A DNA stretch of 63,522 nt, counting the filler, from Hausera hauseri (Eukaryota): the NCBI GenBank assembly GCA_046269625.1. It is 11 parts of 11 records of this genome, joined end to end, with 100 filler letters (N's around TTAATTAATTAA, not from the genome) between each part and the next. Parts side by side here need not be neighbours in the genome. Positions count along the whole stretch, not along the records: positions 22,761 to 27,073 come from JBJURY010641441.1; 10 more parts are not named here. One strand, 5' to 3'. Shown here in pieces: positions 6,909-36,781 of this stretch. Within the stretch, counting starts at the first letter, position 1. Every line of letters starts with the position of its first letter. The notes under the pieces are model-generated. The model had not been told where the DNA came from and ran no database searches. It was given only the letters and a program-made list of their open reading frames with translations. Made by a program: the position numbers and the translations under genes.

Positions 6909-6914
6909 CAGCGA

Positions 6915-11140: not shown

Positions 11141-11196
11141 GGGAGCGAAGCTCCCGAAGGGGGTTTGGGGGCGAAGCCTCTAACTCGCTTGCGAGT
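11141..11196 (+). repeat. Cluster of GC-rich mini-hairpins, probable Helitron 3' terminal region
   Basis: GGGAGC-GAA-GCTCCC (11141-11155), GGGGC-GAA-GCCTC and CTCGC-TT-GCGAG, about 1 kb after the Rep-Hel stop. Confidence 0.6.
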
Positions 11197-11251
11197 ATTT
11201 ACCTTTATATTTTCAATACATTTTTGCATCTCCAAGCACTATTAATTGCTG

Positions 11252-13755
11252 TTAGCTGATTGAAACCACTGTGTTCTGGTTTGAGGAATTGTCTGGATCT
11301 TGTATGGACTGATCTGCACCCTGTTCGGGCTTTTTGGTGCACCCCCGCAGAGGGCATGAGTGCAGAGTCTCTGTGACCTCCTGATTGGACATACGGGAGA
11401 GGGCGTCGGCATTTGCATTGCTTTGTCCTCTCCGGTACTGGACATCAAAGTCAAAAGCAGCCAAGTGGGAGACCCACCGTTGCCCTGTGGCATCTAACTT
11501 TGCAGAGCTCATGATGTACTTGAGGGGGTTATTGTCTGTCTGGACAGAGAACTTGCGCCCATAGACATGGTCATAGAATTTGTCTGTTACCGCCCACTTC
11601 AGGGCAAGGAACTCTAGCTTGTGGGCGGGATACCTTGCCTCTGCTGGACTCAACCCTCGGCTGGCGAAGGCTATGACTCTCTCTATGCCATTTTGAACCT
11701 GGACCAACACAGCACCTAGTCCTTCCCCTGATGCATCTGTCTGAAGCAGAAACGGTAGGTTGTAGTCTGGGTAACCCAACACTGGCGCAGTCGTAAGTCT
11801 GTGCTTTAAGGCCAGGAATGCCTCCTCACATTCCTCTGTCCATAAGAATGGTGGGTCGGATGCCTGGCCTTTTTTTCCCTTTCTTTTCTTCCTTCTTGGG
11901 TCACCACCTGTGAGTCGATATAAGGGAGCTGCTAGGACAGAGTACCCACTGACATACCGCCTGTAGTAGCCAGCAAACCCCAGAAATTGCAGCCTGGACC
12001 AGGCACCTCCCTGCCTGGTCCAGGCTTTTACTCTCTGAATCTCCTCTGGGTCAGTTCGAATTCCCTCAGCAGATACCAGGTGACCTAGGTACTGCACTTC
12101 TTTTCTCATCAGCTGGCATTTAGACGGCTTAAGTTTTATGCCGTGCTCCCGGAGCCGATCGAACACCAACTGCAGTCTGTTTAGATGCTCATCAAAGGTT
12201 TTAGAAAAGATGATAAGGTCATCCAGATATATCAGAAGGTGGGTGAAGTTCAGGTCTCCAAAGCAGCAAGTTATGAGCCTCTGGAAGGTTGATGGAGAAT
12301 TCTGTAACCCAAAGGCATTCGGTTGGCCTCTTACAGACCCATTGGTGTACTGAATGCTGTTTTGTGTTTGTCCTGCTCTGCAACCTCCACCTGCCAATAG
12401 CCTGAAGTGAGGTCAAGCGTAGAGAAAAACTTGGCCTGACCCAATGGTTCCAGAGCCTCATCTATTCTTGGCAGGGGAAATGCATCTCTTGTGCTGCAGG
12501 CGTTCAGCTTACGGTAATCAATACACAACCGTAGTGAGCCGTCTTTTTTTGTCACCACCACTACAGGTGAAGCATAAGGACTCTTACTGGGCCTTATTAC
12601 CCCTGCCACCTCCATCTCGATCAACATCTTCCGGACATCTTGCCACTGTGATGGGGGAATCTTGCGGTAGGGGAGCCTGAACGGCTTAGAGTCTACTGGT
12701 GGAATTTCATGTTGCACTGTCTTTGTGTGACCATAATCTAGAGGATGTTGGGAGAATACATCAAAATTCCTCTCTACCAGCTTTTGAAGAGTGGAGCGCT
12801 GGTCCTCGTCCTCCACTGCAGCTTTATTCAGGTCAACACAACAACTCGATATTACCTGAGTCAGACTCAGACATGTGTCTTTGGACCTGCTTTCATGGCT
12901 TTGGCCCTGCCTTTTGTCTGAGAAATCCACAACACCATCCACTAGGGACACATTGGCTAGGTGTGTGTGTGGCTTGATGATGACTGGATGTGGAGACAGG
13001 TTCATCACTCTGACAGGGGTGCATCCTCTTTTCACATTAGCAAGGACCTTGGCAACCAGAAGGTCTTGAGGAAGCTTCAGGGAGTGGTGGCCCTCAATCA
13101 GTGCTGTATAAGTCCTTCTCTTCGGGCCGGCAGTCACCTTGCACATTAGATCCATTTCTTTTCCCCCAGCGATGTGTATTTTGTGGCCTGTATACACAGC
13201 CGGACCCACTCTGTCTTCCACATTATAATGTCCTGTGTCACCCACCTCCAGGAGGGAGGTGTACCATTCTGGATGACTCTCTCTGATATGCTGGAGAAAT
13301 TGTTGGCCATATGTTGCTTGGAGATGGGTTCTGGAGGCACGGAGAACATTAGTTCCTATCAGCAGAGGGACAGACAGGCGATATTCTGAGTCCTCAACCA
13401 CAAAAGCTGGCACATTCTTAAACTCTTTCTCCAACACTTTCAAGTTAATGCGTAGGACACCATGGTGGGTTACACTCTGACCGGCTGCACCTTCTATAGG
13501 TATTAGAGAGGGCTGTAACTTCTGCTTTTGAAGGATAGGGTGGCTGCACCAGTAGCTGTGGGTAATACTGGTTACCTGAGAGCCGGAGTCAATGAGCGCT
13601 TTGCACTTCATTCCACTGATTTCCACCTCACCTTCATTTCTAGGGCCCACTAGTGGAGTGCCCTCTCCTCCATCAGTCATCTTTATGTCTTGTGGCTGGG
13701 GGTCTGACTGCTCGCCCATGGTTGCCCCGGTGACCACAGGCTCTACCCGTTTAAA
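11252..13755 (-). pseudogene. pol: Gypsy pol (protease-RT-RNase H), one frameshift near 12340, truncated before integrase; teleost-type
   Basis: ALIDSGSQV, SPYASPVV..RLCIDYRKLN, YLDDLII, TDAS, LEFLALKWAV, TDNNPL, NADALSR. Confidence 0.95.
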
Positions 13756-14214
13756 GGCTGAGCTGGGTGGGGGTTGTTCCCATTCACTTGACTGGGGTCT
13801 GGTAACACTGCTCTGCAGACTTTGGCTATGTGCCCTTGTTTACAGCATCTGAGGCATGTCACAGTTGAGATTTGGGCTCGGATTGGAGGCTCTGTGGGTG
13901 CCTGGACTTGTGGTGGTAGGACAGGCAATGGAGCAGCAACTCTTGATTCAAGATTGGTCAATTTGGTCATCTGCTCTGCTTGGCAAAGAGCTAACTTTTT
14001 AACCAGTTCTGTGAGCTCTGACAATTCTGATGCATGGGTGGTCTTCTCCACATTCACAGTTGGGCTGCTGCCTGATGCAGTCTGGATCTGGGTGTGAGCT
14101 CGCTTTGATTTGTGGAATGACTAGAACTTTTTAGTTTCTTTGGTCATGTCTCTGAGCCTACAGCTCTCGGAAGTTTAAGAGCCTGGGCTTAATGGAGTGA
14201 TTCTCATATATGCT
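13743..14214 (-). CDS. gag: Gypsy gag C-terminal part with CCHC zinc knuckle
   Basis: CLRCCKQGHIAKVC; overlaps start of pol frame. Confidence 0.85.
13749..13755 (-). promoter_or_regulatory. -1 ribosomal frameshift slippery site T TTA AAC (gag-pol)
   Basis: CCT TTA AAC GGG TAG at gag end, followed by a GC-rich potential stem-loop. Confidence 0.75.
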
Positions 14215-14314: not shown

Positions 14315-16350
14315 TTGCATGTTGCCCCTCGATATACACCTGTAAAATGGCAGTGATTCTTGACTTTATAATTTTCCTTGGTGAAGGACTTTTTGCACAA
14401 GTAACATGTTGTTGACTTGCACCATTCATCTTCTTGTTTTCACGACATGCTCATATTATTCTTATGATTCTTACGCACGTTTTCAAGCTTATGAGCCATG
14501 TCTTCGAGTCTCTTCATGAAATGTGCTGCTGCACCTGGGCCTCTAAATAGAAATGGTTCACTGTGCATTCCTTTGGCATACATGCAATATGATGAGAGTT
14601 CATGATATTGGTGTGCCGTTGTGCTGCTATGTTGAGGACTGGGCGTGCATGTCTGAACTGACTTAAGAATGACTTCAAAGTCGCAATGGACGACAATTGG
14701 GACCTTCATCTTCTCGAAGTCCTTGAATTCAATGTAGTCCTCCCTGGGGAATTAACAGTAATTGTTGTTACATTACATTTTGTGCTCTTCAGATTCTCCA
14801 CAGCTAACTTGCCGCTGAAATGAGACAAGCATCGTATACATATTTCTATTTGTCCATGAAGATTTGTAATTTGGGATCCTACTAGACGTTTAAAATTCTT
14901 GATCCATACGTAATGTTTCTTTCTCCACCGTCTAGTAGGAGCAGATCCCTATTATCTTTCAATTCAGCATCACATATCTGCAGGGGATAGAATTTGTCAT
15001 CATCGTCCAATCCAATGATGTTGATGGATATATTGTTGATTCGACTGAACTTCTTGACTTCATCTATGGATGGTGGGAACTTAATGCATTGGAAGTCAAA
15101 GTTGTGCTGCAGATCATTATATAGCCAAATTAGATTTGCTGCATGTTTTTGATCCCGTACGAGTTTACATAAAATGGCACACATGAAACACTTGTTGTCA
15201 TCATTAAGGACATTGACACATGCTATTTTATTTGCGATCCAATTAGGGAGCTGAATATATGAACTACCCCGTATGGGAGAGTACTTGTGAACATACACAA
15301 GCAATCTCTTGATGGTTGTCAGAGTCCATCCACTCTTCTTATTCTGGCTGTCCTTATCTTCCTGGATCAGCTTCTCGTGTGCCTCTTGCATCCATTATGC
15401 TATATTGGTGTTTTCCCATATGGGTCTATTTCTGGTCTTGAAGGCCTTTTTGGACTCTTCGCCATTAACATTGACGTATGTGGCCTTAAGTTTCATATTC
15501 ACGTTAAGTTCCTTGAGCTCAGCTATGCTGTCCTGGAGAATCCCTATTGTTTCTCCCTCTGTGTACTCCATGAACTCCTTGATGGTTGTTAGACCCGCTG
15601 CATCAATGACATATTTGCGGACTTTTCTCTTTAATGCTGTAGCATTAAGAGGCCTCTGTTTTTGGCTTTTTGGTGGAGTCGTTGCGCCTGATGCATCTGA
15701 TGGGTCTGATAGGCCTGATGCGCCTGATGGGCCTGATGCTCGTTTTAGTCCTACATTTGGATGTACTGCTGCATGTGGCTGTGATACTGATGCTGCAGGC
15801 TGTGCTGCTGCAACTGACTTATGTTCACTAAAAATGATCTTCTTTGACTTTGATGAGAAGTCTGTAAATGATGCTCTTGATCTTCATAAAACTGTATGTA
15901 TTCTCCATCATAACAGTCTCACATCCTGGGCAGATATAATGGATGATCGTATTAAATTTGTATCCATAATAGCTCCTCATAGTATTGCGGCAATTATGAG
16001 GGTTGTGTATTGCACATGTGCAATACACATGTGAACTGCATCTTGGATTTTCCTTTCGCATGAAAGTCATTATTGGCATATTGGTACTGAATATTTATTT
16101 TTTTTGACTTGGTAAAGGAAATCAAGTACTGCAAATGGATATTGTTAAAGTCTTCATAATTGGTTTGGCTCACTACCTCACATGTAGGGCATATATAATA
16201 CTGAACCTTGTTGCATAGATGGCTAAAGTACTTTTTCATAATACTATGACAATTTTCAGGCTCATGGATTTGAGCCAAGCATTCTCTGTAAAGTTTGCAT
16301 ATCTAAGAATTAACCAATTATTTGAGGAGCACAATTAAAAATCTCGCCAT
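14315..16350 (-). pseudogene. Polinton/Maverick pPolB, N-terminal part (family A, copy 1)
   Basis: SGWTL..I..L.V..YSPIRGSSYIQLP..I..K.AC.NV.N.DNKCF; PIVVHCDFE; HQYHELSSYC; homologous to 46379-49702. Confidence 0.9.
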
Positions 16351-17783
16351 TCGTTGAAGTGATTTTGGAAATAATATATCAATATTACCATGTACTGCCC
16401 GCTTAACGATGGGTTTTAATGCACCAATTAAATGCAAGTGGGCGCCAAATTCCATTAGGAATTCATAAATGGGGAAACCAATGGCGCCATTAGATTCTTC
16501 GAATGATGTGTGCTTGATCGAATATTCGAGTTCGAATAGCTAAATATTCGACTTGAAAGCTCGAATTCAAATATCTAACATCATATTCCGATTGCCATAT
16601 ATGATTTCCTATTCAGCCCCGCTATTAGCCCCGCTTCACTGAGCTGTAAATGCACATTTTGCTTAATTCGAAATAATGATTTTATATCTATATAGTTCAT
16701 TTTCATGGAATAATTTTTATTCATCAGGTTTTCATATATGAGGAATCGATTGCCGTTGTTAAATTTTTCGAATAGTTCGAAATTCGATATTCAAGCTCGA
16801 TAACATTCGAATTTCGAATATCTGAATTAAGATTCGAGATCACCATACTCGATTTCCTATCTGTCCCCGCTAAATGTTGTATCGAATTTTGACTCCCGGG
16901 GAGTCTGCACCAGTTGCAGTTTGGATCGATATTATTCGAAAACTAATTGATAAATTTAAATTCTAACTGCACATTCATATACTGTACCACGTTTGTGTTC
17001 CAATGCATCCGGTCACATGTCATAATCATCAATACTGGAATTATGGGAAATCCAATATTATTGATTTTAGCACACTTGCACATGTGCTGTGCACCTGCAC
17101 AGTGCATGTCAACATGCATCTCAATGTGCTAAATCTAATTCCACTTAACCCAAATGGATTCCATCAATCCTACGCTGCAGTGACAAATATGTGAACTGAA
17201 AAGTGCCTTATCAACCGCATCCAACAGGACACTTGATTCGAGTATTTTACTGAACGATAGTACATCAAGTACTCTACCCGCCAGTATATGTGCCATATTG
17301 ATATTATTGATTTTCATTTTATAGCTGAAAGGCCTATGTGAAGTCTGTCCCAGTTGTCAATTATTCGAAAACCAATCAATATTTTTAAATTCTAACTGCA
17401 CATTCTCATAGTGCATCATATGTGCTTTTGATTTCACCGGGTGCGGGTGCTAATTATCAATATTGGAATTATCGGAAATCCGATATTATTGATTTTTGCA
17501 CACTTTTACATGAGCTGCACACTTGACTGTGCACCAAACGATGTGCACTAATGTGCACTATCTATTAGCACTTTGTACCAATCGATTCGATCAATTGTTT
17601 TAATGTGCAGCGATCGATTTTTTAAATGTTCAAAAATGTGCTAGCAACGGAGCCTAGCGGTACCGTTGCCTAGCACAGTACCGATCGATATTACAGTGTG
17701 CACTATCGATTGGCACATGTGCCAAATTAATTAATCGATTAACCCCTCCGGGGGTCGGACAGAATTTCCATTTTTCCCCTACT
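16350..17783 (-). mobile_element. Polinton family A terminal (TIR) region; terminus 5'-AGTAGGGGAAAAATG at 17783
   Basis: Homologous to 49700-51167 and 57020-57269; homology ends sharply at ...CTACT; internal ~430-bp tandem duplication. Confidence 0.85.
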
Positions 17784-19222
17784 AACAAATAATCCTTTCT
17801 AGATATATTTTCTCCATTGGTTCCTTTATACAATATACACAAATTGATCCTAGCAAAATCTAGGATATTATAAAAGACTTGCAGAGTCCGTTTTTGAAAT
17901 GACAATTTTACAGTACATTTTCGAAGCATTTGGTCGGTCATGTCAATACCGTACTTGGTGTTATTAATATATTCTATTGATTCGGGTAATTTTTTGTTAT
18001 TTTTTCAATATTGATGGAATTATGCTTGGAACTAAGAACTTTTAGTTGCTTTGTTTTTTGTATATTGTAATTGTACAATTACTTGATTTATACAACAGAC
18101 TTGAAAAACGAGGCAAATTATCTTTTCTTTGTTTTGAAATTTTCGGCAGTTCTTTTTTATTTCTCAAATATTTCCCACCAAAGTCGTTTTCTTCTCAAAT
18201 ATCTTTGGTGCCAAAAATTTACTGGTAAAAAATTGTCGGCGGCAAGATTTGTACTAAGACCAGTAAGTGGGTCAGTCAATTTCATTCCAACAAAATCAAC
18301 AAGAGGTATCAATGATAGCATTACTTTATCCTTGACTAAATAAGGGAATCCGTTTATGACATATTTTGTAGCTACATCCGATTTCAACCAAAATCTTATC
18401 CCAAATTTGTTTGGTTTATTGGGCATGTATTGCGTAAATCTGCATATAGTCTTTTTCGGAAATAATTTTTCATCGATGGCAATATCTTTTCCTCTATGAA
18501 ACAATTTTGGCTGTTTTCAATAAAATCGTCCCAAACTTTTGATATTAGAGCAAATTTATCATTTTGAAGTCGTTGACTCCGTTCAGTTCTTTTATCAAAA
18601 TGGATGAACCGTAAAATATTCGTAAAGTTGTTTCTACTCATGGTTTCTCTACAAAGGATATCTCCATTTTTAGACCATAGATATGACATCTTCAAATTCT
18701 TGGCTTCGTAGACACAAGTGCATATAGAATTGCTAAGAATGCGCAAAAGTCTTCTTTCGTGAATTTCCAATCTGTTCGCAAAACTCGCGAAGCCTCTAGT
18801 TCTGTACATAATCTGATATGCTCAATAATGTGATTATTGATTGATTAGCAAGAAAAAGGAGCTACTTTCTTTACCTTTCATTAATTATTTCTTTGCGTAG
18901 CCTGTGGGACCATTATTTTCGTTGAAAGTAAAAATATAATTTGGTCTTCCGGAATTCATTTTTCATTTATTTTTTTCCATACAGATCGATCAACACTGAC
19001 TTCATTTTGGTCGCCAATATTATAGGAATACGAAGGCAACCCTCTTATTCTTTTTCGTGAAGGCAAATTGAAAATATTTTCGTTTTCACTATCACTGCTT
19101 ATTAAGCTTTTGAACTCGACTAAATCAATATCTAAATCACTTTCTTTATCTACTTCTGAGCAATCCTCTCTTATATCATTTACAATTTTCAATAGTCTAC
19201 GTTTTTTTGAATGCCCTGCCAT
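17784..19222 (-). pseudogene. piggyBac (PGBD-type) transposase, decayed and interrupted by the Polinton end
   Basis: TMSRNNF..ILRFIHFD, IAIDE, QYMPNKPNKFGI, AADNF, GIDMTDQM (DDD triad). Confidence 0.92.
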
Positions 19223-19794
19223 TAATTCTTCAATATTTTATAACTATAAAAACACCAAAGTCACTTTGATATTTTCAACTTATTCAATAAAATGTACTAA
19301 CCGTCCAAGAGGTCACTTTGAATGAAAATAGGAAAATATATGTGTAGGATAATATAGATCTCGTTTATCCATTCAAATATTTCAGTCAGAGTGAGAGAAT
19401 GTTACCAGTTATATGTATAAATGTTATGCATCGCGTGAGGTGGAAATGATTTCTGCGCAGAATTTTACGGCAGTAAATCACTCTTCCTCGCTACCCTCTC
19501 GTCCAAAATCCGGTTTTGCACCACAATATCCATATAAGAAGTGGAAAAAACAAAAAGCGTGTTGCTAAATGCAATAAAATTATGGAATAAAAGAAAGTAA
19601 GCGAATATATGAAAATGTGCAGGAAGATAAGTAGTAGGAAGTGAGCGCATGAGATCAAGACCCCCGGATGGAAGAGAAATTGATGTTGTTCGCGGATGAA
19701 TTATGTGTGAGTAAAACTGAATCACACTATGCACGATTAATAGAGCGGAGATAGGAGACATACAGTTATGAAAGTGATACACACAAGCAGGCGT

Positions 19795-19820
19795 ACTGTA
19801 CGGATTCGGAAGGGTTTTAA
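19795..19820 (-). repeat. Possible piggyBac left end
   Basis: Minus strand TTAA(AA)CCCTTCCG, close to the TTAA-CCCT consensus but with 2 extra bases. Confidence 0.4.
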
Positions 19821-20542
19821 GAATTTAAATTTCGCACCAAAATTTTTTTTAAATTTTGATTTATTGCCCCCTATATTTTTTGCCTTAATATTGGTGTAAA
19901 AATATAAATACGATGCGAAAATGTCATTTATTAAAATATCATTTACGAAAAGATCACTTATGAAAATGTCTCACACAACTATTTCACAAAGCTTGGCTAA
20001 TTCCAAATTGCGAATGACGGCTTTTTCTGCGGTGATTACCTGAAACATGAAGAAATTCATCTATGATTGAATGAAGTGCGAACTTGTTTTCAACAAAGGA
20101 TGATATTGCATATGTCGCACCAGATATGCTGTTGGAGGTTATACGAAATAGACTGATTAATATTACTCATATGATAGATAAAATAATCAAAATGGTAGAA
20201 GAATTGGACAACAGTCAAAAGAAACTAAGCAATTTAATTAATGACTTTATTAAATATGGACATTGATTTACTTATTTTGTACAACTGTAATAAATTTTGG
20301 TATTCTTGTTGTTTTTGTTTCTATAATGTGATAAAAATTATCAAAGTATCTAAGTAGAAAATTATAAAGGTTAGAACACGTTACTAAATTAATGTTACTT
20401 AGTATTAACTCTACTGAAATTAAACGCATTTATTGTAACTAAATACCTAACTAACAAAACAAATAAGACAGATTAGAAAAACTTTTATTAATGTAAAAAA
20501 ATTAATCAAAACAAATGTACAACAAAATCGAACAATCAAAAA

Positions 20543-21699
20543 TCAAAGAAAATACTGTCCAAATGCGACACTTTTATTTTTCTGTATCCAGGGTCTTTTG
20601 TCATCAAGTGAGTTCAACGTCTTCTTTTTCGTGCTGATTGTCATTAACTGGTGATATTTTGTCCCAATTCTCTCCTGGTCAACTATTGTTCCACATGCAT
20701 TTTGATACGTCTGTAGATAGTTGCTGAAGGGTAAATCTATCTTTTTGAGGTTGATGCCCTTACATTTCATGACTGGTTTATTTGAGTTTTCAGTGCATAA
20801 GATTTTGGTCGCAAGAAAACGTCTTCTTGATACTCGACACAGCCCTTACTTTCATCCTTAAATTTGCCCATTACCGATGAAAAACGAGTGGAGTAAAGAG
20901 GTCAGTAGTATAGTAATTAGACGCATCAAACTCTTCATTGTCTATCATTGCTGGTAAAAGTTGTGATCTTAGATCAACTCCACGACACGCAAGGGAAAAG
21001 CTGTTCATATCACCAGCAATAATATTTAGCTCACAATTAAACTGGTGCCTATACGTCTCCAATTCGACATTATTTAACTCCGACATTTGCAACTTAGAAA
21101 GATCAAGTACGGCCTGACCGATGTATAAGGGTATATCTAAAGTAACCATGACTATATTGAGGAGAACAGCAAACCGATCATCAGCTATAATAATACCTTC
21201 TTTAAACTGTGCTTTGCTGGCATATGTAATAAGCTTTTTGCATTATTACACGGTCTTAAGTTGGACCTTTTCAGCAGATTTTTAACAGTTTTTCCATACA
21301 ATCTGTTATTTTTCAGCTTAAAGAAGTCTTTTTCAAAAGGATTTTTTTCTGCAGCCCTTTTAGAAGTATTTAAATCAATATAATCCTTAAGGATATATCC
21401 TTGATCAAACTCACCAACCTGATGAACCTTTTCAATTACATCACCTAACTTGATATAAAACTGTAAAAACCGATAGTAAATAACGTAGTTGGACTTACGC
21501 TCATGTGTCAGCAACAATTTCTTAACTCTCGATCCAGAAGTACATTAATTGATTGGAGCTAAAGGCAGTTGATCCAACTTATCATGTTTGTCAGATGGAA
21601 TGTTTAAATCACCTACAAAGACTAAACCTCGTTTTTCCCTAACAGTGCCAATATGAGACAATTGTTCAATCAGACCAATTAATTTATCCTTATCATAAA
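20543..21699 (-). pseudogene. Polinton pPolB C-terminal polymerase domain (second family)
   Basis: YIDLNTSKRA..FEKDFFKLKNN.LYGKT..N, PLYIGQAVLDLSK, KCKGI, LNSLDDKR. Confidence 0.9.
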
Positions 21700-21973
21700 T
21701 GTGGTGCCCACATGGTTTGTCCCCTTGCCGGACGAGATCGAGGGTTTGTTGTTCCCTGGGCGACGCGCAAGTCCGGGACCGAATGCCTGCCTCTTTCCCG
21801 GGTTATGTTTGGCGATTGTGGGTGGTGAAAAGTGCTATATGAAGAACAAGTAGGATCTCATACTTCTGAACAGCAGTGGTTCCTCTGGCAGAACTCGTTC
21901 TAATCACGCATAAAACCGACACTATTCATGTCTATTCTTTTGCGTTTTGGACAAGAAAGTCGCAGGCAACACA
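21700..21973 (+). mobile_element. 5' LTR of an LTR retrotransposon inserted into pPolB, followed by PBS
   Basis: Starts TGTGGTGCC, ends GGCAACACA (8/9 inverted match); TGGCAGTCGGTG at 21976 after a 2-nt spacer; start resembles the LTR at 53471. Confidence 0.7.
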
Positions 21974-22203
21974 CGTGGCAGTCGGTGTGCATGCATCTTG
22001 GGCGTTTGTTGTATATGTGCATACATACATGTACTATACTTTTTTGTTGTTCGTTTTTTTTATTGGAACTAATTTTGTTTTACTGTGCGAAGAGTTTTGA
22101 AATTTTGTTGGACGAAAATAAATCTTTTAGTGCCGCAATTCAAACTGGAGTTTTCTTTTTGTGAAACTGCAAATTCTTTTTATCTAGCATTGAGACAATT
22201 AAT

Positions 22204-22548
22204 ATGTCATCAAACGCAGAACTGCTTGATCCGAAGAGCTTATTTGATGGGAATAATTTTTCTGAATGGGCAAAGCAATCTTTTGCTAATTCCGATTTTT
22301 CAAGTAATTTGGATAAATTTATTTCTACCAACTATGGAGATAGTTTGAACGGAATCCACGACGAGGATTTTGAAAGAAAACTAAATAAGATATGCGATGA
22401 AATTATTCAAAAGTATGATATTGATAATAGTGGTTTCTATCAATTCCATATTGAGTTAAATGCTTTGGACATGAATATTAAAAAGTTACATTCCCTTGAA
22501 GAATCTTCGAATAAAACAAGTAATTTGGCTCAGTACTTGGTGTACTAG
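22204..22548 (+). CDS. Hypothetical first ORF (gag-position) of the LTR element starting at 21700
   Basis: First substantial ORF after LTR and PBS; no motif recognised. Confidence 0.35.
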   Translation: MSSNAELLDPKSLFDGNNFSEWAKQSFANSDFSSNLDKFISTNYGDSLNGIHDEDFERKLNKICDEIIQKYDIDNSGFYQFHIELNALDMNIKKLHSLEESSNKTSNLAQYLVY

Positions 22549-22900
22549 ATGGTAAAGGTGTTAGAGCAAATGAAGAAATTTCAGAAGAAATAGTAATTTC
22601 TACAGAAGACGATTATGTGCAAATTGTATCGTTGACATCAAAATTACTAAAGCAAGATCCNNNNNNNNNNNNNNNNNNNNNNNNNNNNNNNNNNNNNNNN
22701 NNNNTTAATTAATTAANNNNNNNNNNNNNNNNNNNNNNNNNNNNNNNNNNNNNNNNNNNNTATTACTGTTCTTGGTATTATTTTACCTCCATTTATACTG
22801 GTTATCAATGCCTCTTTTGGAGCGGATGGATAAAACATCAGCTTCATATGTTTTGGGTCATAATTGTCTGTCACTTGAACAATGTATATCTATATATTCA

Positions 22901-25565
22901 TTAGGAGACAAAGTGTTGTTCCAATAGGTACTCATTCCATCTTCTCATTTGAGAAATATATGATAGTAAAGTCCGTCGTTTCTTACTTCTGGCAGTGATT
23001 AAAGTCCATGTTCTTCTAGTGTTTTCGATGGGTTTAGATCTTTTCTCCTTTATCTTCTTTGGTGAGAGGTTATTTTCATCATTATTATTATCATCGTCAT
23101 CATTCTTGTTTTTGTTTTTCTGTTCCCATTCAGCATCCTTTTTTATCAGGAAACAGCTGGCTATGAATGGAATTAATGCATAAATAGTTTTCCATGCACA
23201 TCCGGCAGCTTGTTTAATGCCGTATCCTTTAGTTATCATGGTCAATATCGCTTTTATAAAGGCAAAGATATAATAAAATCCTATCCATCCAGAATTAAAT
23301 TGACCAAAAGACATATACCATCCCCATGCGGTCGCAAATATATCTTTAGCTATTTTCTTGGCATATTCTGGTCCCATCAAATTTTCCCAGTTAGCTTTCC
23401 CGGTGTGATCAACTAACACTCTCATTGCCATCTTTGTTAAAATTTTCTGTCTCTTTTGGGGGAACATCATCATTCTTCTATGATTTTCCATATCTTGTTC
23501 GCAAGACACACCCATCTTTACCAAATCTGTCAATGGCTTGTATGTTTGTTCGGTCTTCAAATTGATTAAACTAATCCCTCGAGGTAGAGTAATCTGCTCC
23601 TTTTTCGGCATTCTTATCCATAAATTGTCGCTTAATCAAAATGCTGGCGACATAATATATGTACAATTTTCATGTACATATGGTTTCTCCATAGGATCTA
23701 ATAATATACGAGTAATTGGTTGCAAGAAACGTGGCTTTTCCTTGTACCAAACAAGTAACTCCATGGTACAGTCTGTTGTTGGTCTCAGTTTGACAGCTAC
23801 TTTTGTACATTCAAAAGTTACAAGTGTCTCACCCATTGTTCGAGAGAACTTTCCTTCTGCATCGGGAGATTCAGCTGGATCTTTTATTATTCCGTCCGTT
23901 ATCGCTAATAGATATATTCGGTTTCTAATTATCTCTCTGTTGATTATCTGTTGATTATATCTCTGTTGACATAATTGATACCAGTTTGCTTTTCCAGTGT
24001 GATCAGCTAACACTCTCATAGCCATCTATGTTAAAACTTTCTGTCTCTGTTGATGGAACATCATCATCCTTCTATCTTTTTCCATATCTTGCTCAGCGTA
24101 CACACCCATCTTTACTAAGTCTGTTAATGGCTTATATGTTTGTTCAGTTTTCAAATTAATTAAACTAATCCTCCGAGGTGGAGTGATCTGCTCCTTCTTC
24201 GGCATCCTTATCCATAAGTTATCGCTTAGTCGGTATGCTGGCGACATAGTGTATGTACAATTTTGGTGTACATATGGTTTTTCTGCCGGATCCAATAATA
24301 TCCGGGTAATTGGTTGCAAGAAACGTGGCTTTTTTTTATACCAAACAGGTAACTCCATGGTACAATCAGTTGTCGGCCTTAATTTGACAGCTACTTTTAT
24401 ACACTCGAGAGTTACGAGTGTTTCGCCCATTGTTTGAGCAAATTTACCTTCTGCATCGGGAGACTCAGCGGGATCTTTTATTATTCCGTCCGTTATCGCT
24501 GACAGATATATCCGATTTCTAATTATCTCTCTATTCAGCTTACAATCATTTAATATTATCTCTCGATACATAGCATAAATATTTTCTTGTTGGAAGTGAT
24601 AAATAAAATCGATCTTATTATCGAAGTAAAGATGAGGCTTTACTTCTGATTTATCAATCTTCCTCTTAGCTTTTGTTATTTCTGTTGTGGATAAAAATAT
24701 CCCTTTATAATTTGTTCAAAATATCGTGTAATCACATCTGGTATCACTTTCTAGTTTAAATCTCATTCAATCTTGAGGATTTACTGAATATACTATGGTA
24801 GGAGTCTCAATCATATCCGATATTCGATCTAGTCTACTCTAAGATATTTCTTCTTTATACATTCGGCCTTTTGTTTTGTTAAATTTTCCTAGCTTTAAAA
24901 GAGCTAACTGAAATTAATCTCTCAACTTCATATGACATAATTGATTCACCAGTGTCGCATTATTTATTATAGTAATCACATTCAGGGAATGTCGTCATCG
25001 TCTCTGAGTATAGTTCGAAGAGGGCATCGTATTCCCTCAATTCAACTTGATAATCTTCTATGGCCACTATATTGTCTAAAATTTCACCACTGATATTGTT
25101 GGACTCACCCTTAAAATATCCTGTATTATCAATTGTCCCGGCAACAAAAATTCTTTTATTAATGATTTTTCCTTTCTGATCCTTCAAACGAATATTTCCT
25201 ATATTGATCTGTTTTGTTACAAAAGCCTCTATACACATTTGTTTACATACAGGAAGTGGCTGGAACGGAGTGGTTGGTACAACTATTGCTGAGTTTTGAT
25301 ACCAATATTCACAAATAAAGTGAAAATGATTTTGTCGATCAAAACATTCTTTCACCTTAGTTTTCACAAATTCCGACTCTTAATAAACGTAGTATTCTTT
25401 TCCGATATTGTAGTTAATGACTCCGGATTGGCCAATTGACATTTTTCTAAGTTTAGTAAGGAATGTATAGGACCTTCCTTAACTTGACTAAAATCATAAG
25501 CAATGATTGAAAGTGCTTTGGGCATCAGGCTAAACAGAAGGAGTATAGGTGTAATTTTTGTTAGC
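22901..25565 (-). pseudogene. Chuvirus-type (class III fusion-like) envelope glycoprotein, disrupted, with internal 594-bp duplication
   Basis: Signal-like ILLLFSLMPKALS then IIAYD..SLL.LEKC; MYREIILNDCKL; GETLVTLEC.KV.VK.R..DCTMELPVWY..FLQPITRIL; C-terminal hydrophobic segments. Confidence 0.85.
23387..24534 (-). repeat. In-frame tandem duplication (period 594 nt) inside the glycoprotein
   Basis: GGATCTAATAATA at 23694 vs GGATCCAATAATA at 24288; near-identical peptides in ORFs 24026-24571 and 23636-24025/22901-23611. Confidence 0.95.
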
Positions 25566-27073
25566 CATGATAAATCGAAATCTGTTTGTAGATTTCGTTG
25601 GCTCACCGATTGTTGTTGTGGACGATATTCTGTTCGTTGTTGTGTAATTGGAGCCGATTCATGTATTACTGTATGAACCAAACTGGTAACCCATCCACCT
25701 CTACATTCTACACATCCTTCAACATTGGCCTTTAAAGCACTTGTAGCAATTTCTATATTTCTCCCTATCTTTGTCCCGTTCGGATTTACTCCATTCATCA
25801 CCAATACCTTACACAAGAGATAAGATATGGCTGTTACGATTTTATTTCCAGATATGCCGGTGCCCATCATTCTAGATATTATATCTCTTTTCTAGATTTC
25901 ATTTATCCTCTGATTTTTTGGGATATCTGCAAATTGTTCACTAATCTTTGCGACCTCATTCTTTATAACATGCATTAGTGAATCCGGTATTTACAGATTA
26001 GTATTGAACTCAACGAATGCATTGTGCATTCTTCCTAACAAGGTATGTAGTAATGTTGTCAGTAATACATTATCTACGTCATATTCATCTTCTGTTGTTA
26101 GCAATCTTCGAACGACTTCGTCATCTCTGGCTTTCCTACCTTTCAACTGATAAAGTTTCGTCGTTCCTTTTGATCTGCAACGGTTTCTTTTATCTGTTAG
26201 CATTTGTTCTGATATAGACATATTCAATCCCGTTTCTATTTGTTGAACCTCATGCTGATGTTCGATTTTCCGTTTTTCTTTTCGCCTAAAATCGGTGATA
26301 ATATCGTCAATTATTTCTTGTTCTGACTGTTTATAAGTAATACACACAGGATTGTATCGGTTTTTCCAAATACCTACTTCATACAAAGTTTCATGATTCA
26401 ACAGAGTGCGTCCATAGAAACGTAACTCTATTTCTCCTCGAGGCTGAATAATCCCATTGATATTATTTTTCAATGTCATTATTGTATCCAATGACTTCAT
26501 TCTTAAAACATGAAAATCTTGGTTATACTGTTGTAGTGTAACCATTACTTCGGGGTTTTCTCGGACTGTCCTCACTCTATCTGCATATCGATAAATTATG
26601 TATCGTACGATATTCTGATATTGGCATGTACCCGCCGCATACATTAACAGCAAATCCAGTAAATTAGCAAATTGTTGATGGCTAATTGTTGGCGATAGTA
26701 GCATAGACAGATCTTGCCTAAACCGAGTACTATTTATTATTTCTTGGTTGGCATAGCTGGATATTTTTCGAACTATTTCTACGCCATCCTGATCTATTTC
26801 CACAGATAATAACTCATAACTTGTGGATTTTTCCTTTATTTTCTATTTCGTTATTCCTTTTATCTTCTCCTTGAGTGCACTTTCTTCACTGGTCTTACTT
26901 TTTTCACTTTTACTTCCCAAAGGCGGATTGAGTTCCGGAATCTTCAATTCTTCTCCTTGTATTAAAAGTTTATCCTTTTTCTTGACCCTTTTCTTTTCAA
27001 TATCCGATTTTTATGTGGGAGTCTTTTTGGGCCTACCAATAAGAACAATGACTGAGCTTTCGGCGTTCATTGT
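25566..27073 (-). pseudogene. Polyprotein segment upstream of and in frame with the glycoprotein; contains a ubiquitin-like domain (about 26333-26548)
   Basis: ORFs 25991-26803 and 25364-25870 are in the same frame (120-nt gap with stops); DTIMTLKNNI..P..IELRFYGRTLLNHETLYEVGI matches the ubiquitin pattern. Confidence 0.7.
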
Positions 27074-27173
27074 NNNNNNNNNNNNNNNNNNNNNNNNNNN
27101 NNNNNNNNNNNNNNNNNTTAATTAATTAANNNNNNNNNNNNNNNNNNNNNNNNNNNNNNNNNNNNNNNNNNNN

Positions 27174-29139: not shown

Positions 29140-31421
29140 TTAATCATCAAGATCCACGTTTTCATAGTCGATGCGCGATTCGATAAAATCTTCTTTTTCG
29201 GGTTTTGAACCTTGTCTGGGCCGTTCTATTGGGATCAATATGGGTTGCTTCTGTTTCATTAAGAGCAGGTATTTGATGTGACCGTTAAAAAATGTCTCCG
29301 TAATAGCATCAGAAGTTAGTGTAGTATCCAGTCGTATCCGTAGCTTCGTGTTTAGTGAGATTCCATAATTTATGGGTAAATTTAACACTGCTACTGGACT
29401 CCGATAGGGAATAATGAAATAATGATTATTGGGCCTCTGATATATCATGCCAATAAGAAGGTTGTTCTCTGTACTCCATTTGTATAATTTTCTTGAGGAG
29501 ATGGTATCCTTTAAAAAATATGGTCGATCGATTCTGTGAATTGGTACCGGTAGATTCAGGAAATTCTTTTTTATTATTATTCCGAAGTTAAACTTTAATT
29601 CTTCCTTATTAATCAACGTATGTTCAATTTGCAGGGCCAATGTTTCGGTAGGGGACGGTTGAGTTTGACTTGCCATGCTAATCGTTTTTACTGGGTAACG
29701 CCAACGTCCAAGTTCACTTTCTTCGTCATCTTCTATGTTCTGGGGGGCCAGTATCTGCTGGATATCCATATTATCAATTATATCCTCTTCATTATCGCTT
29801 TCGGCGTCTTGTATTTCCACATTTTCTGGTGTAGCCAATTCTAAGTCTTCTTCTATGAAATCTTCCTTGCTATCGATCAATTTTTGGCTATTTGTATTAA
29901 CTACCTCTACTTCAATTTTGTGGACCCATGCAAATTCTTGTAGATACTTCTCTCTGCAGTAAAACAATTCTCCAACGTCTACTATGTTTTCATTTATCTT
30001 GTCAGGTGTCCAATTAGGTTCGCGTTTGATATCTGAAATCTTCTGAAGGATATCTAAAGCCAATTCCAGTTTCCCGTTGGTATTTTGTTCGTACATTTGC
30101 CCGTTCCTATGTTTTGGTAATCTTAGCTCCCTGGCTACATTCGTTATGTCTATTGTATTGAACGATACTCCGGTGACATCCGGGTGTTTCAATAGGTCAA
30201 TTGCACCAGCCAAATAATTTGATGGCACCTCGAACATTTGTAATGCTCGGTGTATGTCCAGTCCGATGACAATTGTTCCGAAAAGCCATTGAATGACTTC
30301 TTTTGAGACTTCGAAGATATCAAAACCATGGGCTTGTAAGGATTGAAAATCAATACCGTGCCTACCGGTATTGCAATTATGCACTCTAACTCTGTTCACA
30401 ACCAGGGAATGGTACAATATTTTACCCTTGATGTTTGTTATGGTCACTTCTAAGGGCAGTGAAGTATTATCCGGTGAAAATCCAAAGGATACCGTTAGGA
30501 TTCTAATTGTAGCTGACTGGCTTGTTTGCAGGTAATTTAATCGTGCATTTGCAATGTATTCAGGCGGAGTTTGAACTAGGACCATAGGCCTAGGTAAGGA
30601 TAAATGTTTTTCTGGCAAAAGCCATTCCAACATGATTACTAGAGGGATCCGATTCGGCCGGATTTGAATTAAATCTACACTCATGGGTGTATTTATAGCC
30701 AGTGATTCTTCCTCGAAGATGGTGGAGATATTGGATAGCGTGTATTGCGAGTTCTTTTTAGTTTTTAGAACGGCGGTTCCACGTGCCATATGTAGAATCA
30801 AACCATCTATTGATGGACATTCTGTGATAAATTCGTCCATATTTCTTTGCTTGGGTTCTGTTACAGTGATTATTTTTGCATGTCTATTGACAGTGGGACC
30901 ATACTTCAAATGATTCGGTATTTTAGATATTTGCGGGAACAACAATTCTGGATAGATTGACGCCTCACGTCTTATATGATTGTAGAAGGATCTCGCCATG
31001 GTTTTGGTAAAGGATGAATTTTTGGCTCCGTACTGTGCCAATAACTGATCGATGGGCAATATATCTGCATGGAAGAGAGGAAAATTTGTGGATGAGATAG
31101 TTTTATGGTGAATAGTATTTTCTGCTCTCATTTCAATCATGTTTGGTTTGTACTGATCTTGAAAGTTTTGTTTTTGGACTGAGTGTCGTTTTGAAATCTG
31201 TATTGAATTGAACTGACGTTTGAGTTTGTTTTGGTTTGAAAAAGGGACTGAATAGAAAAATTTGTCAAATTTATACTTACTTTTTGGTGTCGTTGTGCTG
31301 TCTGGTAACCAGACCAATAATAAAGCTGTAAAAATGGGACCTATTGTGCGTGGCGCATATGTGTGCATGCTAACTTGCGATGACATCAGCTGTGGCTGGT
31401 CACGCGATTTTAGCGGGCAGT
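29140..31421 (-). CDS. Large accessory protein (>748 aa, 5' open) with a degenerate DEDDh/REX4-like domain, acidic linker and conserved C-terminal domain
   Basis: Uninterrupted ORF; EVTITNIKGKILYHSLV..NTGRHGI..EVSKEV..GTIVIG resembles the REX4/ISG20 core; C-terminus homologous to 45880-46278. Confidence 0.8.
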
Positions 31422-31521
31422 NNNNNNNNNNNNNNNNNNNNNNNNNNNNNNNNNNNNNNNNNNNNTTAATTAATTAANNNNNNNNNNNNNNNNNNNNNNN
31501 NNNNNNNNNNNNNNNNNNNNN

Positions 31522-34500
31522 TCTTTATTATTACCTATCCTTTGTCTGCAAGTGTTTATTATTCTTTTTCTTTCTTCTTTAAATGGTCTAGCTATTTCAT
31601 CATCATCTGGTAATTCACAAAATATTATATGATACCGTATTGCATTCAATTTACCCGAAAATCCACTTGCGTTTACTGTATCAAATTTATCTATATCCAT
31701 ATAATCCTCCGGGGTTAATATGGTGTTCACATCTCGTTCTAAGTAATCGTTCCATACTATCCGTGCTTCGTCTTCCTCAAAAAGTTTTATATCTTCTCGA
31801 ATAAGATCATCCTTTATAGCCATAAGTGCGTAAGTCATCCAACAATTAATCGCATAAGTTTCAGACTGAGAATTAGTATGTAACTCCTCACTATAATATC
31901 TAAACAGGTCCAAGCATCGATTAGCTCTCTTTGTTATTCATTTCGGAGTTCTACTTGCTAGTAATTTCGGAGAGAGTCCTCGAAGATAGTTAGTTATACT
32001 AGTTATAGGGAATGATTTAGTTATACCAGTTATAGTAAATTACGGTGGTCTTTTTTGCAAAAATGAGTAATTAACATTCGTTCTCTTCGACTTCCAATAA
32101 ATAGGGGTAGATATTTGTTTCTATCTCCGTATACTATACTTTCTTCATATGTTAGATCATTTTTTCTATTAGAAAATCAAATGATCGAAGGAAACAAATT
32201 ATCTGTGGTGTAGAATGACTTTTTAATCGAGCCTTTATTAACGACTCATGTTTTGGACACATAGGTTCATTACCTAATATTCCAATCATTTCGTTCCATG
32301 TTCCTATCACGATTTTAGTTGGTTGTAACCATATGGGTTGTAATTATATTTCCATTATAACTCGTTGTAGTAGACAAAATCCTTGATAGTATACCCTAGT
32401 TTGAAAATCAACCCATGGGCTGAATTTTACATCATCTATCGGAATCTTGTATGAGACGTATAAAAGACTGGATATTAAAAGTAGTTAATAATCATAGGTT
32501 GATTTCTTAAAATCTATTCCTGTTTCTTGTCTTAGTCGATTAAAATATGATTCATATAGAATCATATACAGTTTCATGAAGTTTTCTGTAACCTCATGTG
32601 GTAGTTGATCTATACTACCTTGCAGTAGTAGACAGTTAACAATATGTCTACGTCGTTCTCTAGGTGTTTCCCCGTATATAAGAAGTTTTGTATCAGGATA
32701 ATCGGGATAAAGTAGAGTGGCATAGTCGGTTTTTGGTTCAATATCGTCTAACGACTGTTCGTTTCTGTTGGCGATAATGCGCAAATTCGTTATTGTGTTT
32801 GGGATATCTTCCTCTTCTGGGCATATTCTTGTTGAATTTATCGGAAAGTGTGGTGGTTTATATACCAGTCTATACAACTCTTGGTCCATTTCTTCCCTTA
32901 ATGATGGAAGATTTACTGGGTTTATTCTTAAGGTATTTACTAATCTAAAATAGGGAATTACTTGATTAGCCATTGTATAATTATGTATTCCTTCATTATG
33001 GTAGCCAAAATCGTCTTTGTCTCATGTGTCGTTACTTTTGGTATCAGATTAATAGCCTCTCGTATTGCCTCTATTAGCTCTGGTGCTACATACTTTTTAA
33101 TTTTATATGGTTCCGTTCACTTCCATTTTTATTTAATTCTTCCATAGCCTCCTGTAGTGGTTTAGGTAGCTTCCTCCATTCTTCGTTATTAGCGTAATTT
33201 TTCCTCCCTTTCTTCAAAGGAAGTTTATATGTAGAGTTAATAATCTTCCAGCTTACTCTTTGATTTGGAAATGGCAATCTTTTCCCTAAGTGGAAAGAGC
33301 ATTCATGGATTATATTCTTCTTCCTATAGTCTGTCATTATTTATGTTAGATTGGAATAATCATCTTCAAATTGTGTTTGTTTTTGATGTTGTTTTTCAAG
33401 TAATCGTTGATTTGATGAAGGATCCAGGTGCATCTCCTCCAGTGGAAAACTTGAAGGTACTTCTTGGACATGATCTACTTTATTCTTACTGACTTCGTTG
33501 TTTGTTTCTTTATTTCTCCCCAAGAATTTATCATTCTTGTTATTATGCGGAAAATTCCTGCGACGACTCATCTTCCTATACTTTTTGGTTACAAATGTAT
33601 TCTTCACGCTGCCTTTTGAAAGGGTCAGCTAACACTTGATAATTGTTCAACATGCAGAACAACATTCTATATCGTAAAGCATTTAAATTGCCTGTTAGTT
33701 CCTTTTCATTTACTTGTTCCAGCCGATTAATTTCGATACTATCTTCCTCTGTTAACGGCGTATCCTCATTCCATTTCTTCTATTTTTTCTTTCCTTAATT
33801 CGTCTTTTATTGTCATTAATATATAAGTCAACCAACAATTAACCATAAACATATCGGATGTTGTCCTATTTATCAATTCTCTTCCGAATTTCCTATATAA
33901 GCCAATACATCTCTTTCCTATTTCTCTACCTTTCCTTTGAGTTACAAATTTTTCGCATAATGGAGACGTTTGCCGTAATAACATAAACATATCTATATTG
34001 GGTAGTTGCATTTTCTTCTCGCTTGCAGTGTTAATAAAAAGAATTCTTTCTTGCGCGCTACCAATAAACAGAGGTTTGTATCTTCTTATGTCCCTGTAAT
34101 CGGAATAAGCTGATATAAGTGAGGTTTTCTTGTTAGGTGTTAATTTATGGCTATGATTTCATGATTTTTATTGTAGATGTAATGTGTCGGCTCCATATTG
34201 GAATAAATTCGATTTGCTTGTGCTTCACTATTCATCCTTAACGTTCTCACTAATTTGTCATAATTCAGACATTCTCTGAACGTTTGATAACCATAAGGAA
34301 ATCGGAAAGAGGATTCCATTGCACTTACTTTGGGTTCATCAATTATGAGAATTGTATTATCCATATTTCCAGTCATTTCAAATTCTTGTTTACCATGACG
34401 TCTATTTCGATTGAAGTTTGGGGCGCACACAATTCTTCATTCACCAAAACATTTATCCCAATTGAAGTTTGGGACGCTTACGATCCTTAAAAATTCCATA

Positions 34501-36781
34501 CTGGTTAAAATACATAAAACTTTACTTGGTGGTAGTCCAGTGTTTAAGGGTTTTTTAGGCTCCCCTTCTTCGGGTATCTTTACAAAATTATCCATCTAGA
34601 TATTATTGTTAGGTTCTGTTAAATCGTCATTCCGTTCAGCTTTGCCACTGCCGCACAACGAGTCCCCGTTTTCTTCCATTTTCGAAGATTCTTCGCTGAG
34701 GTAAATACAGGTGTTTTGCTTCTCGAAAGTGTTTAATTGTTGCATCTCTTCCGTTGTATGAATCAATTCCTCCTTTTTCTTACTTAATCGTAATTGACAA
34801 TTACTTATTACGTCCTCTCGTTCCTTTTTGTACATTGCAGCCTTCTGCTGATTATCGTTTAGCAAGCAGAACAATAATCGATAACGTAAGGCATTTATTC
34901 TGCCCGACATTCCCATAACATTTACTTGTTCTAGTTGATAGATTTCTTCCCTGCCTTCCCTGGTTAATAATGTATATATATATCTGTATAGAGAGAGATA
35001 TTCCACAGTATTCGAATTTCTTCTTCTTCTATTTCCTCCATTTCTTGCCTTTTCAATTCATCCTTTATTGCCATCAGTGTATAAGTCAACCAACAGTTGA
35101 CTATAAACGCATTAGACGTTCTTTTATTCACCAGTTCTCCTCCAAAATTTTGGAATAATCCGATACATTTTTCTCCTATTTCTTTGGCTTTTTCGTGAGT
35201 TACATACTTACCACATAATGGAGTCGTTTGTCGTAATAAAGCAAATGTATTGATAGTAGAAATTTGTGGTATTTCTTTTCTAAAATAATGAATAAGAAAA
35301 TTTCGTTCTTGCATACCACCAATAAACAGAGGTTCGTACTTTAGCAGATGGCTTGAACAATTCGATATCGTCCACTGTTCTTCATTATCATTCTCATCGT
35401 AATCAACTGATTTAGATTTACTTAATCTCCAATTAACAGTATGGGCATAACGGATTAGTTCTATCGGAGTAAATATTTGATTAGATAACCATATTAGCTC
35501 ACATATTTCTCTCAAATCTTTTACTAATTTATCGTATTCTATGCAATTGCGTATTGACTGATATTCATAAAGGAACTCCAAGGGTGATTTTTTCAAATAT
35601 TCCGCTCGTTTTTGTGTCGATGTATTAGTGAAGGTGTAATCAGATCCCATTTTATATCATCCGCAGAAACTTGATTTGACATATTGTCCATTCCTTCACC
35701 AACAGTATATGTTCCATTTTCTTTCTCATTATCGGGTGTGTCCTTTAAAGGATTTGAGACTTTTATTACTTTCTCTCGTTTGGAAAAACATTCATCAGAT
35801 TTGTCGTCGTCATTACTAAAGAATTTGCCCATCATCAACAATGAAAGTATCCACAATAATATGGAGGTCCATGAAAAATTAGGGCGATGAGATGTAGCCT
35901 CAACTGCCTCTTCTGTACTAATCGTAGAAAGCAAGCATATTCCCATAAGGAACAACGTTCCCAATGAAAATGTAAAGTAACCTTTGATACCTAATGATTC
36001 GCGCTTTTTATCCTTTTCTTGAAGGTCTTGGATATGCATTGATCTTGTTTCGTTAGCCATTTTGTCCATATATTTAATGCTATTTCCTGCAAATTGTAAT
36101 CGATCTATCTTCATCCATTGTTCAGGAGGAAGATTACTATCTAATGGCTGTCCCATTCTTCTGTTCCAAACTCGTTTAACTTCCTCTACCCCGTTATTGA
36201 GTTTTCTACCTCCTATATTTATATTGTGATGTTTAAAAATTTTTATTGCTCGAGTAGTTGCTACATAATCATGATGTTGCGATCTTCCTTGACTAGCTAA
36301 ATCAGGAATCGTATAATATACTTCTTCACAACTTATCTTTAAGAAAAATTTGTCCAGAGCGGTTAATGCATTAGAATCCAATTTTAGGTCTTCGCAAAAT
36401 AATTTTATTATGGGCTTATATTGTTCATCTGTTATTCCGCACTTTTCGTGGTATTTACTAAGGAAATTTCTTAATTCCGTTACACTATTTATAGGTCCTT
36501 TGAGTAATTGTTGTGCGTGATTTATGCGTTCTGGAGTAGCTAACAGGAAATTCTCCAGCCTGTGTCGATTAGCTGCCTCTCTGGTCAATGGGAGTGGTGG
36601 CAAGTTCCCCCCTTTCTGTTGAGGTAATTCGAAGTAATTCTGTTCAGTTGGTTTGACTTCTTTGCGTTGTATCTGTTTAGTAGGGTCTATTTTCCTTAGC
36701 TTAGTATCGTTATACTCAGGGAATTTTGGACTTTCTTCTGATTGATGTTTTTCAATTTCCTCTCTTAGTCGTTTAATATTT
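31522..36781 (-). pseudogene. Decayed large polyprotein: two hydrophobic helices followed by 3-4 copies of an unrecognised domain
   Basis: Repeated PLFIG..ER, LLRQT.P, CIGL, NCW(L/M)TY.LM.IKD(E/D)L, G.SG..NA.RY..FC motifs; two TM-like stretches in ORF 35593-36603. Confidence 0.75.

Follow-up and report, generated by a model that had tools for sequence, protein, structure and literature searches.

The window analysed here, 63,522 nucleotides of the Hausera hauseri assembly GCA_046269625.1, consists of 11 separate pieces of 4–8 kb each, joined by linkers (N44-TTAATTAATTAA-N44); a reading of the pieces as a single locus was rejected because of these linkers. One of them, at positions 22761–27073 on the minus strand (between the linkers at 22661–22760 and 27074–27173), is very probably a broken stretch from the interior of a multi-copy Ty3/gypsy element, likely Burro-like, whose relatives encode in one open reading frame (ORF) a Gag, a helical domain joined to a ubiquitin-like domain (UBL), a Bcl-2-like domain, a signal peptide, an envelope glycoprotein (Env or G) and a pol region. 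Its env would lie between gag and pol and is not a chuvirus gene. The assignment to a decayed multi-copy Ty3/gypsy element is made because an open-frame relative, P0002, has a Gag and a zinc knuckle in front of the domains seen in the piece, and because eight relatives have pol after G. Planarians harbour giant Ty3/gypsy elements known as Burro or GYPSM1 (PMC6431247; Grohme 2018 and Jurka 2007 cited there), in which the order is Gag, a Ubi2/SUMO-like domain, BCL-2, a mononegavirus-like env and pol (Arkhipova and Yushenova 2019, PMC6431247). The layout is thus already in print. Having the same order and the same three unusual modules, the present element probably works as Burro does, and it likely belongs to Burro proper.

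A single minus-strand frame, interrupted by four stops (at 27011, 26843, 25991 and 25892), runs from 27073 to about 25400 and encodes in succession a Lys/Glu-rich linker, a four-helix domain, the UBL and a helical domain, after which come an internal signal peptide and the beginning of a PF24664-family glycoprotein. It takes in the first ~35 glycoprotein codons, up to a frameshift near 25400, and a second frameshift near 24920 restores the original frame (tblastn). The present copy is unable to encode the protein. Position 27073 is only where the piece ends; the alignment of P0002 to the piece extends from 27070 to 24563. The features of the piece are the following:

22761..27073, minus strand: whole piece, very probably an internal part of a decayed Ty3/gypsy gag-env-pol element, with gag and pol outside the piece ends
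26792..27073, minus strand: Lys/Glu-rich linker with two stops (27011–27013 and 26843–26845); in relatives it comes after the zinc knuckle of Gag
26567..26791, minus strand: four-helix domain accompanying the UBL; model helices 6–20, 26–37, 43–56 and 64–80 (predicted local distance difference test, pLDDT, ~90)
26333..26551, minus strand: UBL (beta-grasp) of internal type, without C-terminal di-Gly, supported by profile, model, Foldseek and VIA-align; 54 of 73 residues identical to P0002
25661..26038, minus strand: predicted Bcl-2-like helical domain; BH2-type GGW retained, BH1 NWGR degenerate; stops at 25991–25993 and 25892–25894
25508..25567, minus strand: internal signal peptide; predicted signal-peptidase site three residues before a YD motif
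23120..25507, minus strand: Env, a Monjiviricetes/chuvirus-type fusion glycoprotein (gB-like; class III according to the literature), broken by stops, two frameshifts and an internal duplication
23387..24535, minus strand: 555-bp tandem duplication within env; copies 23387–23941 and 23981–24535, 85.8% alike

In a search for longer proteins, P0002 was the only match among 2,061 candidates. This protein of 1130 aa, encoded by one open frame and 64% identical to the window over 574 aa, comprises Gag, a single CCHC knuckle (197–212), the linker, the helical-UBL module (UBL at 473–522), the Bcl-2-like domain (651–748), the signal peptide and PF24664 from residue 793. The linker of the piece (34% Lys plus Glu) is identical to that of P0002 at 42 of 82 positions and is also matched by the C-terminus of the Gag protein P0004. 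An exhaustive search (E ≤ 1e-3) returned five proteins, P0002–P0006, among which P0003 carries Bcl-2, G and proteases, P0005 Gag, CCHC, UBL and Bcl-2, and P0006 Bcl-2 and the start of G. When the Bcl-2–G part of P0003 was used as query, eight polyproteins of 2855–4057 aa were found among 1,487 candidates. In all eight, G precedes PR (protease), RT (reverse transcriptase), RH (RNase H) and IN (integrase) within one ORF, which in four of them also includes Gag. Ty3 is the best match of the profile made from their pol (E 2e-164), and the relatives display the PR-RT-RH-IN order and the Ty3-type Gag and RT of Metaviridae (Ty3/gypsy). The 4057-aa P0012 contains Gag, two CCHC knuckles, UBL, Bcl-2-like domain, G, ankyrin repeats, PR, RT, RH and IN, and its UBL is recognized by PF00240 (E 4e-5) and PF11976 (E 1.5e-3).

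Counting P0002–P0014 as the 13 relatives, UBL and G share one ORF in six, and UBL, Bcl-2 and G do so in two (P0002 and P0012). The cargo is modular, with a UBL but no Bcl-2 domain in four relatives and neither in P0013. The UBL-module profile finds seven of the 13 relatives, four of which were in the profile, and profiles made without the window recover it (UBL module, E 1.2e-14; Bcl-2, E 3.5e-12). Further searches returned no match with P0002 among metagenome contigs (0 of 43 candidate stretches), nor among viral contigs with the UBL alignment (0 of 177) or P0003 (0 of 13), and a profile search for longer proteins with the UBL module gave P0002 alone among 7,995 scored candidates, which is a weak blank. 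With P0007 as query, two loci (L001 and L002) were obtained from 41 candidate stretches; they are fragments of 10–11.5 kb in which no repeats of the length of long terminal repeats (LTRs) were found.

These relatives bear directly on the sequence-only reading, which had proposed an ancestral ORF made of a Lys/Glu-rich part, a UBL, a helical part, a signal and a chuvirus-type G, read through point stops, and knew of no chuviral G or env of such architecture. The continuous frame into the signal peptide and the glycoprotein holds, and so does the single ORF, since open-frame relatives have UBL and G together and not in separate ORFs. The proposed start does not stand, as Gag and CCHC precede it in P0002; moreover, the helical part is Bcl-2-like and pol follows G in frame in the eight long relatives. 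The glycoprotein is indeed of the family proposed (PF24664), but as a retrotransposon env inside a polyprotein rather than a chuviral G with an added domain, and the claim of an architecture without precedent is overturned by the Burro description (PMC6431247).

The relatives show several other features. Three aspartic-protease motifs per polyprotein were seen in six of the nine relatives checked (P0003 and P0007–P0011) and two in P0013, with up to three stretches in Pfam; the last motif comes after the integrase in P0007–P0011 and P0013, and is followed by hydrophobic segments in P0007 and P0013. The Burro section of PMC6431247 makes no mention of such multiple proteases. P0011 has a second, C-terminal UBL (residues 2939–3023; profile E 1e-6), and P0012 a second, diverged helical-UBL module at residues 470–640 (by eye). 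In P0014, an exonuclease-like domain (residues 110–300, by eye) takes the slot before the signal peptide, where the accessory-exonuclease profile gave no match. Downstream of the polyprotein, L002 (7268–11517) and L001 (6861–9923) carry accessory ORFs. One encodes a DEDDh exonuclease (PF00929, E 1.5e-11), another is degenerate and related to it, and a third, standing alone, has a UBL at its end (PF00240, E 0.04; UBL-module profile, E 5e-4); they are separated by tandem repeats of 43–89 nt.

The peptide that had been likened to ubiquitin by eye lies in the minus-strand ORF 25991–26842. As a single sequence it scores below the Pfam cut-off for PF00240 (E 0.01; 16 bits for a cut-off of 25.4), and its ORF alone found no match in the PDB (phmmer). 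Profiles for PDB searches with the UBL and Bcl-2 domains were made from trimmed alignments, the whole-protein alignment being dominated by pol, and the five-sequence UBL profile (window and four relatives) matches single ubiquitin chains (E 5e-5 to 1e-3). The AlphaFold2 model (10-row alignment, pLDDT 84.6) has four helices followed by a beta-grasp topology. At E ≤ 1e-3 Foldseek matched 293 PDB chains, the listed ones all being UBL domains, among them ubiquitin, ISG15 and SUMO (template-modelling score to ubiquitin as target, 0.87; root-mean-square deviation, rmsd, 1.8 Å), while VIA-align superposed 78 residues at Z 10.5 (rmsd 2.5 Å). The domain thus has the beta-grasp fold that had been suspected, and chance resemblance was rejected because the relatives' profile, the fold model and the structural matches go beyond chance.

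The lack of a C-terminal GG had been pointed out from the peptide and extends to the family: none occurs within 25 residues past the UBL core in the seven rows matched by motif search, nor, by eye, after the UBL of P0012. A conjugatable modifier of the ubiquitin type was accordingly discarded. Because the position of ubiquitin Ile44 is variable across the family (by eye), the usual binding patch of ubiquitin is not retained, and a ubiquitin cleavage tag was also rejected for a UBL devoid of both di-Gly and an Ile44-type patch. The UBL likely binds other proteins without being conjugated to them, and works with its four-helix partner. The latter has phmmer matches in P0002, P0005, P0007 and P0008, and weakly in P0011; in searches with the joint four-helix–UBL model it obtained no match of its own, as UBL matches occupied every list.

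The helical domain between the UBL and the signal peptide is predicted to adopt a Bcl-2 fold. PF00452 is found on P0002 (E 0.055, positions 6–100 of 100) and P0006 (E 7.7e-5), and in the PDB a six-row profile matches Bcl-xL (E 2.8e-4), all 60 rows shown being Bcl-xL or Bcl-2. The GGW of BH2 is invariant in the six rows. With the model of the domain (pLDDT 74), all rows listed by Foldseek belong to the Bcl-2 family (E above 1e-3). In a wide VIA-align search, ranks 1–31 were all Bcl-2 folds and the first unrelated row came at Z 5.6; the top Z of 10.2 (rmsd 2.8 Å, 112 residues aligned) is below the value of ~13 under which matches between helical bundles may reflect a common arrangement, and the case for Bcl-2 therefore rests on the uniform ranking and the sequence matches. 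The domain would most likely serve to damp host-cell apoptosis during retrotransposition. It may instead have a non-apoptotic role, as do some poxvirus Bcl-2 folds.

PF24664 (Monjiviricetes fusion glycoprotein) matches four ORFs of the piece between 25379 and 22901 (E 6e-34, 9e-28, 7e-10 and 2e-3), and a hydrophobic C-terminal region of Env is visible by eye at ~23141–23326. All 12 rows have a hydrophobic core ahead of mature G (hydropathy of the best 10 residues, 1.9–3.4), and in 11 of the 12 small residues occupy positions −3 and −1, the pattern of signal peptidase; a cleavage site is thus predicted there. In a tree of G, in which the window row filled 35% of the columns and from which P0004, P0005 and P0006 were excluded as having too little G, the window groups with P0002 on a long, isolated branch (support 100/100, branch length 1.73), and the window received no resolved place beyond P0002.

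From general knowledge of polyprotein processing, the following steps may be proposed. The Gag-UBL-Bcl-2 part would be made in the cytosol, after which the internal signal would thread Env into the endoplasmic reticulum, where signal peptidase would cleave it at the lumenal face. Transfer would then be halted by the Env anchor, leaving protease, RT, RNase H and integrase back in the cytosol, and the element's own protease would free the parts. The leftover signal would remain attached to the upstream product and give it a membrane tail.

The element exists in many diverged copies: the piece is covered by 17,206 contigs in run X1 and by 1,873 in run X2, most of them less than 95% alike. Such numbers and divergence fit a repeat family present in the genome in many diverged copies rather than an RNA virus. 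No RNA holder was among those listed. The tandem duplication within env is missing in other copies, because some of the X1 contigs omit ~600 bases at this place.

A separate and more compact gag-env-pol gypsy lineage from another invertebrate host, which would have the UBL/Bcl-2/env cassette in common with Burro by ancestry or exchange while lying outside the Burro clade, seems to us improbable. The isolated branch of the window and P0002 in the G tree, the modular cargo, the lack of MATH and BIR in the relatives' Pfam lists and the reported non-monophyly of gag-env-pol elements (PMC13524379) would all suit it, but the exact env motifs are common with Schmidtea elements only, and both the full UBL-Bcl-2-env order and the ankyrin repeats of P0012 are as in Burro. 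Loss of pol, leaving either a non-autonomous gag-UBL-Bcl-2-env element or an env cassette domesticated by the host, is very improbable. P0002 has no pol, though it stops inside G, and no protease was detected with a pre-protease profile in the last 400 bases at the 3′ end of the piece; yet the first protease motif of the relatives comes 50–590 residues past G and may fall beyond the piece, and the many stops and thousands of diverged contigs fit a decaying repeat rather than a domesticated gene. As for an endogenised chuvirus glycoprotein gene, or the env of a BEL/Pao element of the Anakin type, with an acquired ubiquitin-like domain, G does belong to PF24664 and mosquito Pao elements with a chuvirus G are known (PMC7642597), but a Ty3-type Gag with a single CCHC knuckle opens the same ORF, gypsy pol follows G in relatives, and the piece has no L or N gene. 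The Gag of the P0002 ORF and the pol after G contradict both the endogenous viral element and the Anakin readings, whose probability we regard as negligible.

Several observations weigh against a Burro-like Ty3/gypsy element, in addition to the failed protease search and the Z score discussed above. Neither gag nor pol is within the piece, P0002 stops inside G, and pol is seen only in relatives that are 24–41% identical in G. The Bcl-2 profile finds five of the 13 relatives, all five among its building sequences, Foldseek gave no match at E ≤ 1e-3 for the Bcl-2-like model, and the position aligned with the BH1 NWGR of pro-survival Bcl-2 proteins is degenerate. The placement with Burro rests on domain order and motif look-ups, not on alignment or an RT tree. 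The relatives' ORFs (2855–4057 aa) are shorter than those of Burro (4873–5140 aa, in elements of more than 25–30 kb with long LTRs; PMC6431247), and the Pfam lists of the relatives contain no MATH, BIR or dUTPase (25 of 28 families shown for P0012). Two shorter env motifs are unspecific, with one of six TPTI and one of three DNIV matches falling in Schmidtea, and the name Burro is nowhere in the searched text and supplements of PMC13524379. With these points taken into account, a fragment of a multi-copy Ty3/gypsy element, likely Burro-like, is still by far the explanation that we favor.

A bolder proposal, which we consider doubtful, is that the relatives form a widespread and undescribed clade of enveloped gypsy elements outside the known planarian hosts, swapping apoptosis and ubiquitin cargo between Gag and Env. 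The signal peptide of Env, which starts ~30–60 residues past the BH2 motif, would here double as the C-terminal anchor of Gag-UBL-Bcl-2 and replace both the matrix domain and the Bcl-2 tail anchor, and four-helix–UBL would be a new domain pair with a conserved acidic motif.

Most of the 11 pieces of the window bear mobile-element genes. On the minus strand at 29143–31419, an open frame of at least 759 aa encodes a degenerate DEDDh exonuclease domain without Pfam match; it is related to the accessory ORFs of L001 and L002 (blastp E 4e-6, profile E 6e-8), may be the accessory region of an element of this kind, and has a stretch in common with the piece at 42244–46278. Across 31470–36781 (minus strand), a helical domain without Pfam family recurs in several ORFs (at least three copies, motif like NCW-TY-LM-IKD-L), also in ORF 31470–31937, and two hydrophobic segments lie in one of the ORFs. 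An L1-type long interspersed nuclear element (LINE), which we presume to be fish-like, occupies 36882–42143 (endonuclease PF03372, E 8e-12); its CpG observed/expected ratio is 0.57 versus 0.84 for the env piece. Its coding part has a summed depth of mostly 4–30 in X1 and X2, versus thousands in X1 and hundreds in X2 for the env piece, and the ratio between the two differs from run to run, such depth not being a copy number; the contrast is a weak hint that LINE and env piece come from different organisms in a mixed sample. The remaining pieces include an RT-bearing element (5470–6240, within 1–6808), a Helitron adjoining a gypsy pol (6909–14214), a presumably Polinton-like element with type-B DNA polymerase, endonuclease VII and integrase similarity (46379–52824) and a decayed gypsy pol (52925–56919). 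A common repeat of ~72% identity links the pieces 14315–22660, 46379–52824 and 57020–63522.

In the literature searched, the UBL and Bcl-2 parts of Burro appear as HHpred or motif remarks in one review (PMC6431247). The present work adds structural models of both domains, the conserved four-helix partner, evidence for the signal-peptidase site and a set of shorter relatives with variable cargo. Moreover, the IAP region of Burro1 reportedly shields the stem cells of planarians against apoptosis (Lee 2026, cited by PMC13465017), and a Bcl-2-like domain in a Burro1-type polyprotein would be a testable second anti-death function beside it. For genome scans, a chuvirus-type glycoprotein match with in-frame coding upstream may signal a gypsy gag-env-pol element and not a virus.

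Among known systems, Chuviridae do not include an element whose relatives have G in one ORF with Gag and pol, and whose piece has no L or N. Anakin elements are BEL/Pao elements with a chuvirus G (PMC7642597), that is, another case of the same glycoprotein Pfam family captured by an LTR element. Here, the backbone is Ty3/gypsy instead of BEL/Pao (Ty3_capsid and Retrotrans_gag matches, a listing free of Pao families, and a pol that matches Ty3 best) and env forms part of the polyprotein, downstream of UBL and Bcl-2. The polyprotein of the pestivirus bovine viral diarrhoea virus, which came up among the structural matches, can also contain a ubiquitin fold. Pestivirus insertions are near-identical to host ubiquitin and are cleaved after di-Gly, whereas the UBL described here is ~20% identical to ubiquitin and has no di-Gly.

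Closer to the element are the gag-env-pol gypsy errantiviruses with HSV/gB-type env described in Platyhelminthes, Bryozoa and Nematoda (PMC13524379), where no ubiquitin-like or Bcl-2 domain is mentioned in the text searched and supplements. Smed_errantivirus_1–6 have env between gag and pol, as do relatives of the piece. Look-ups among the 229 env sequences of the supplement, which bear on exact motifs only and not on sequence identity, placed the motifs of the window or P0002 in Schmidtea mediterranea elements only, six elements in all, for CDTGES, TNYKGIFLS and VELR (one of one each), KMMT (two of two), TGES (three of three) and YQES (four of four); the bryozoan env rows among those listed had none of them. 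Burro resembles the element with some differences: P0002 has one knuckle and Burro two or three, and the extra protease domains of the relatives are unlike the Burro description. Burro cargo may form a subdomain or a separate ORF, and its MATH domain can shift to an accessory ORF (PMC6431247), which is echoed by the accessory ORFs of L001 and L002, one of them ending in a UBL. Ankyrin repeats (P0012 and L002), accessory ORFs and tandem repeats occur in relatives. Finally, beyond the piece itself, P0002 and P0012 have an N-terminal Gag with CCHC in the env ORF, PF11976 on P0012 places a Ubi2/SUMO-like domain before the BCL2-like one, and the latter precedes env and is present in five of the 13 relatives; in P0012, Gag with CCHC, Ubi2/SUMO-like domain, BCL2-like domain, env and PR-RT-RH-IN follow one another in one ORF, as they do in Burro.

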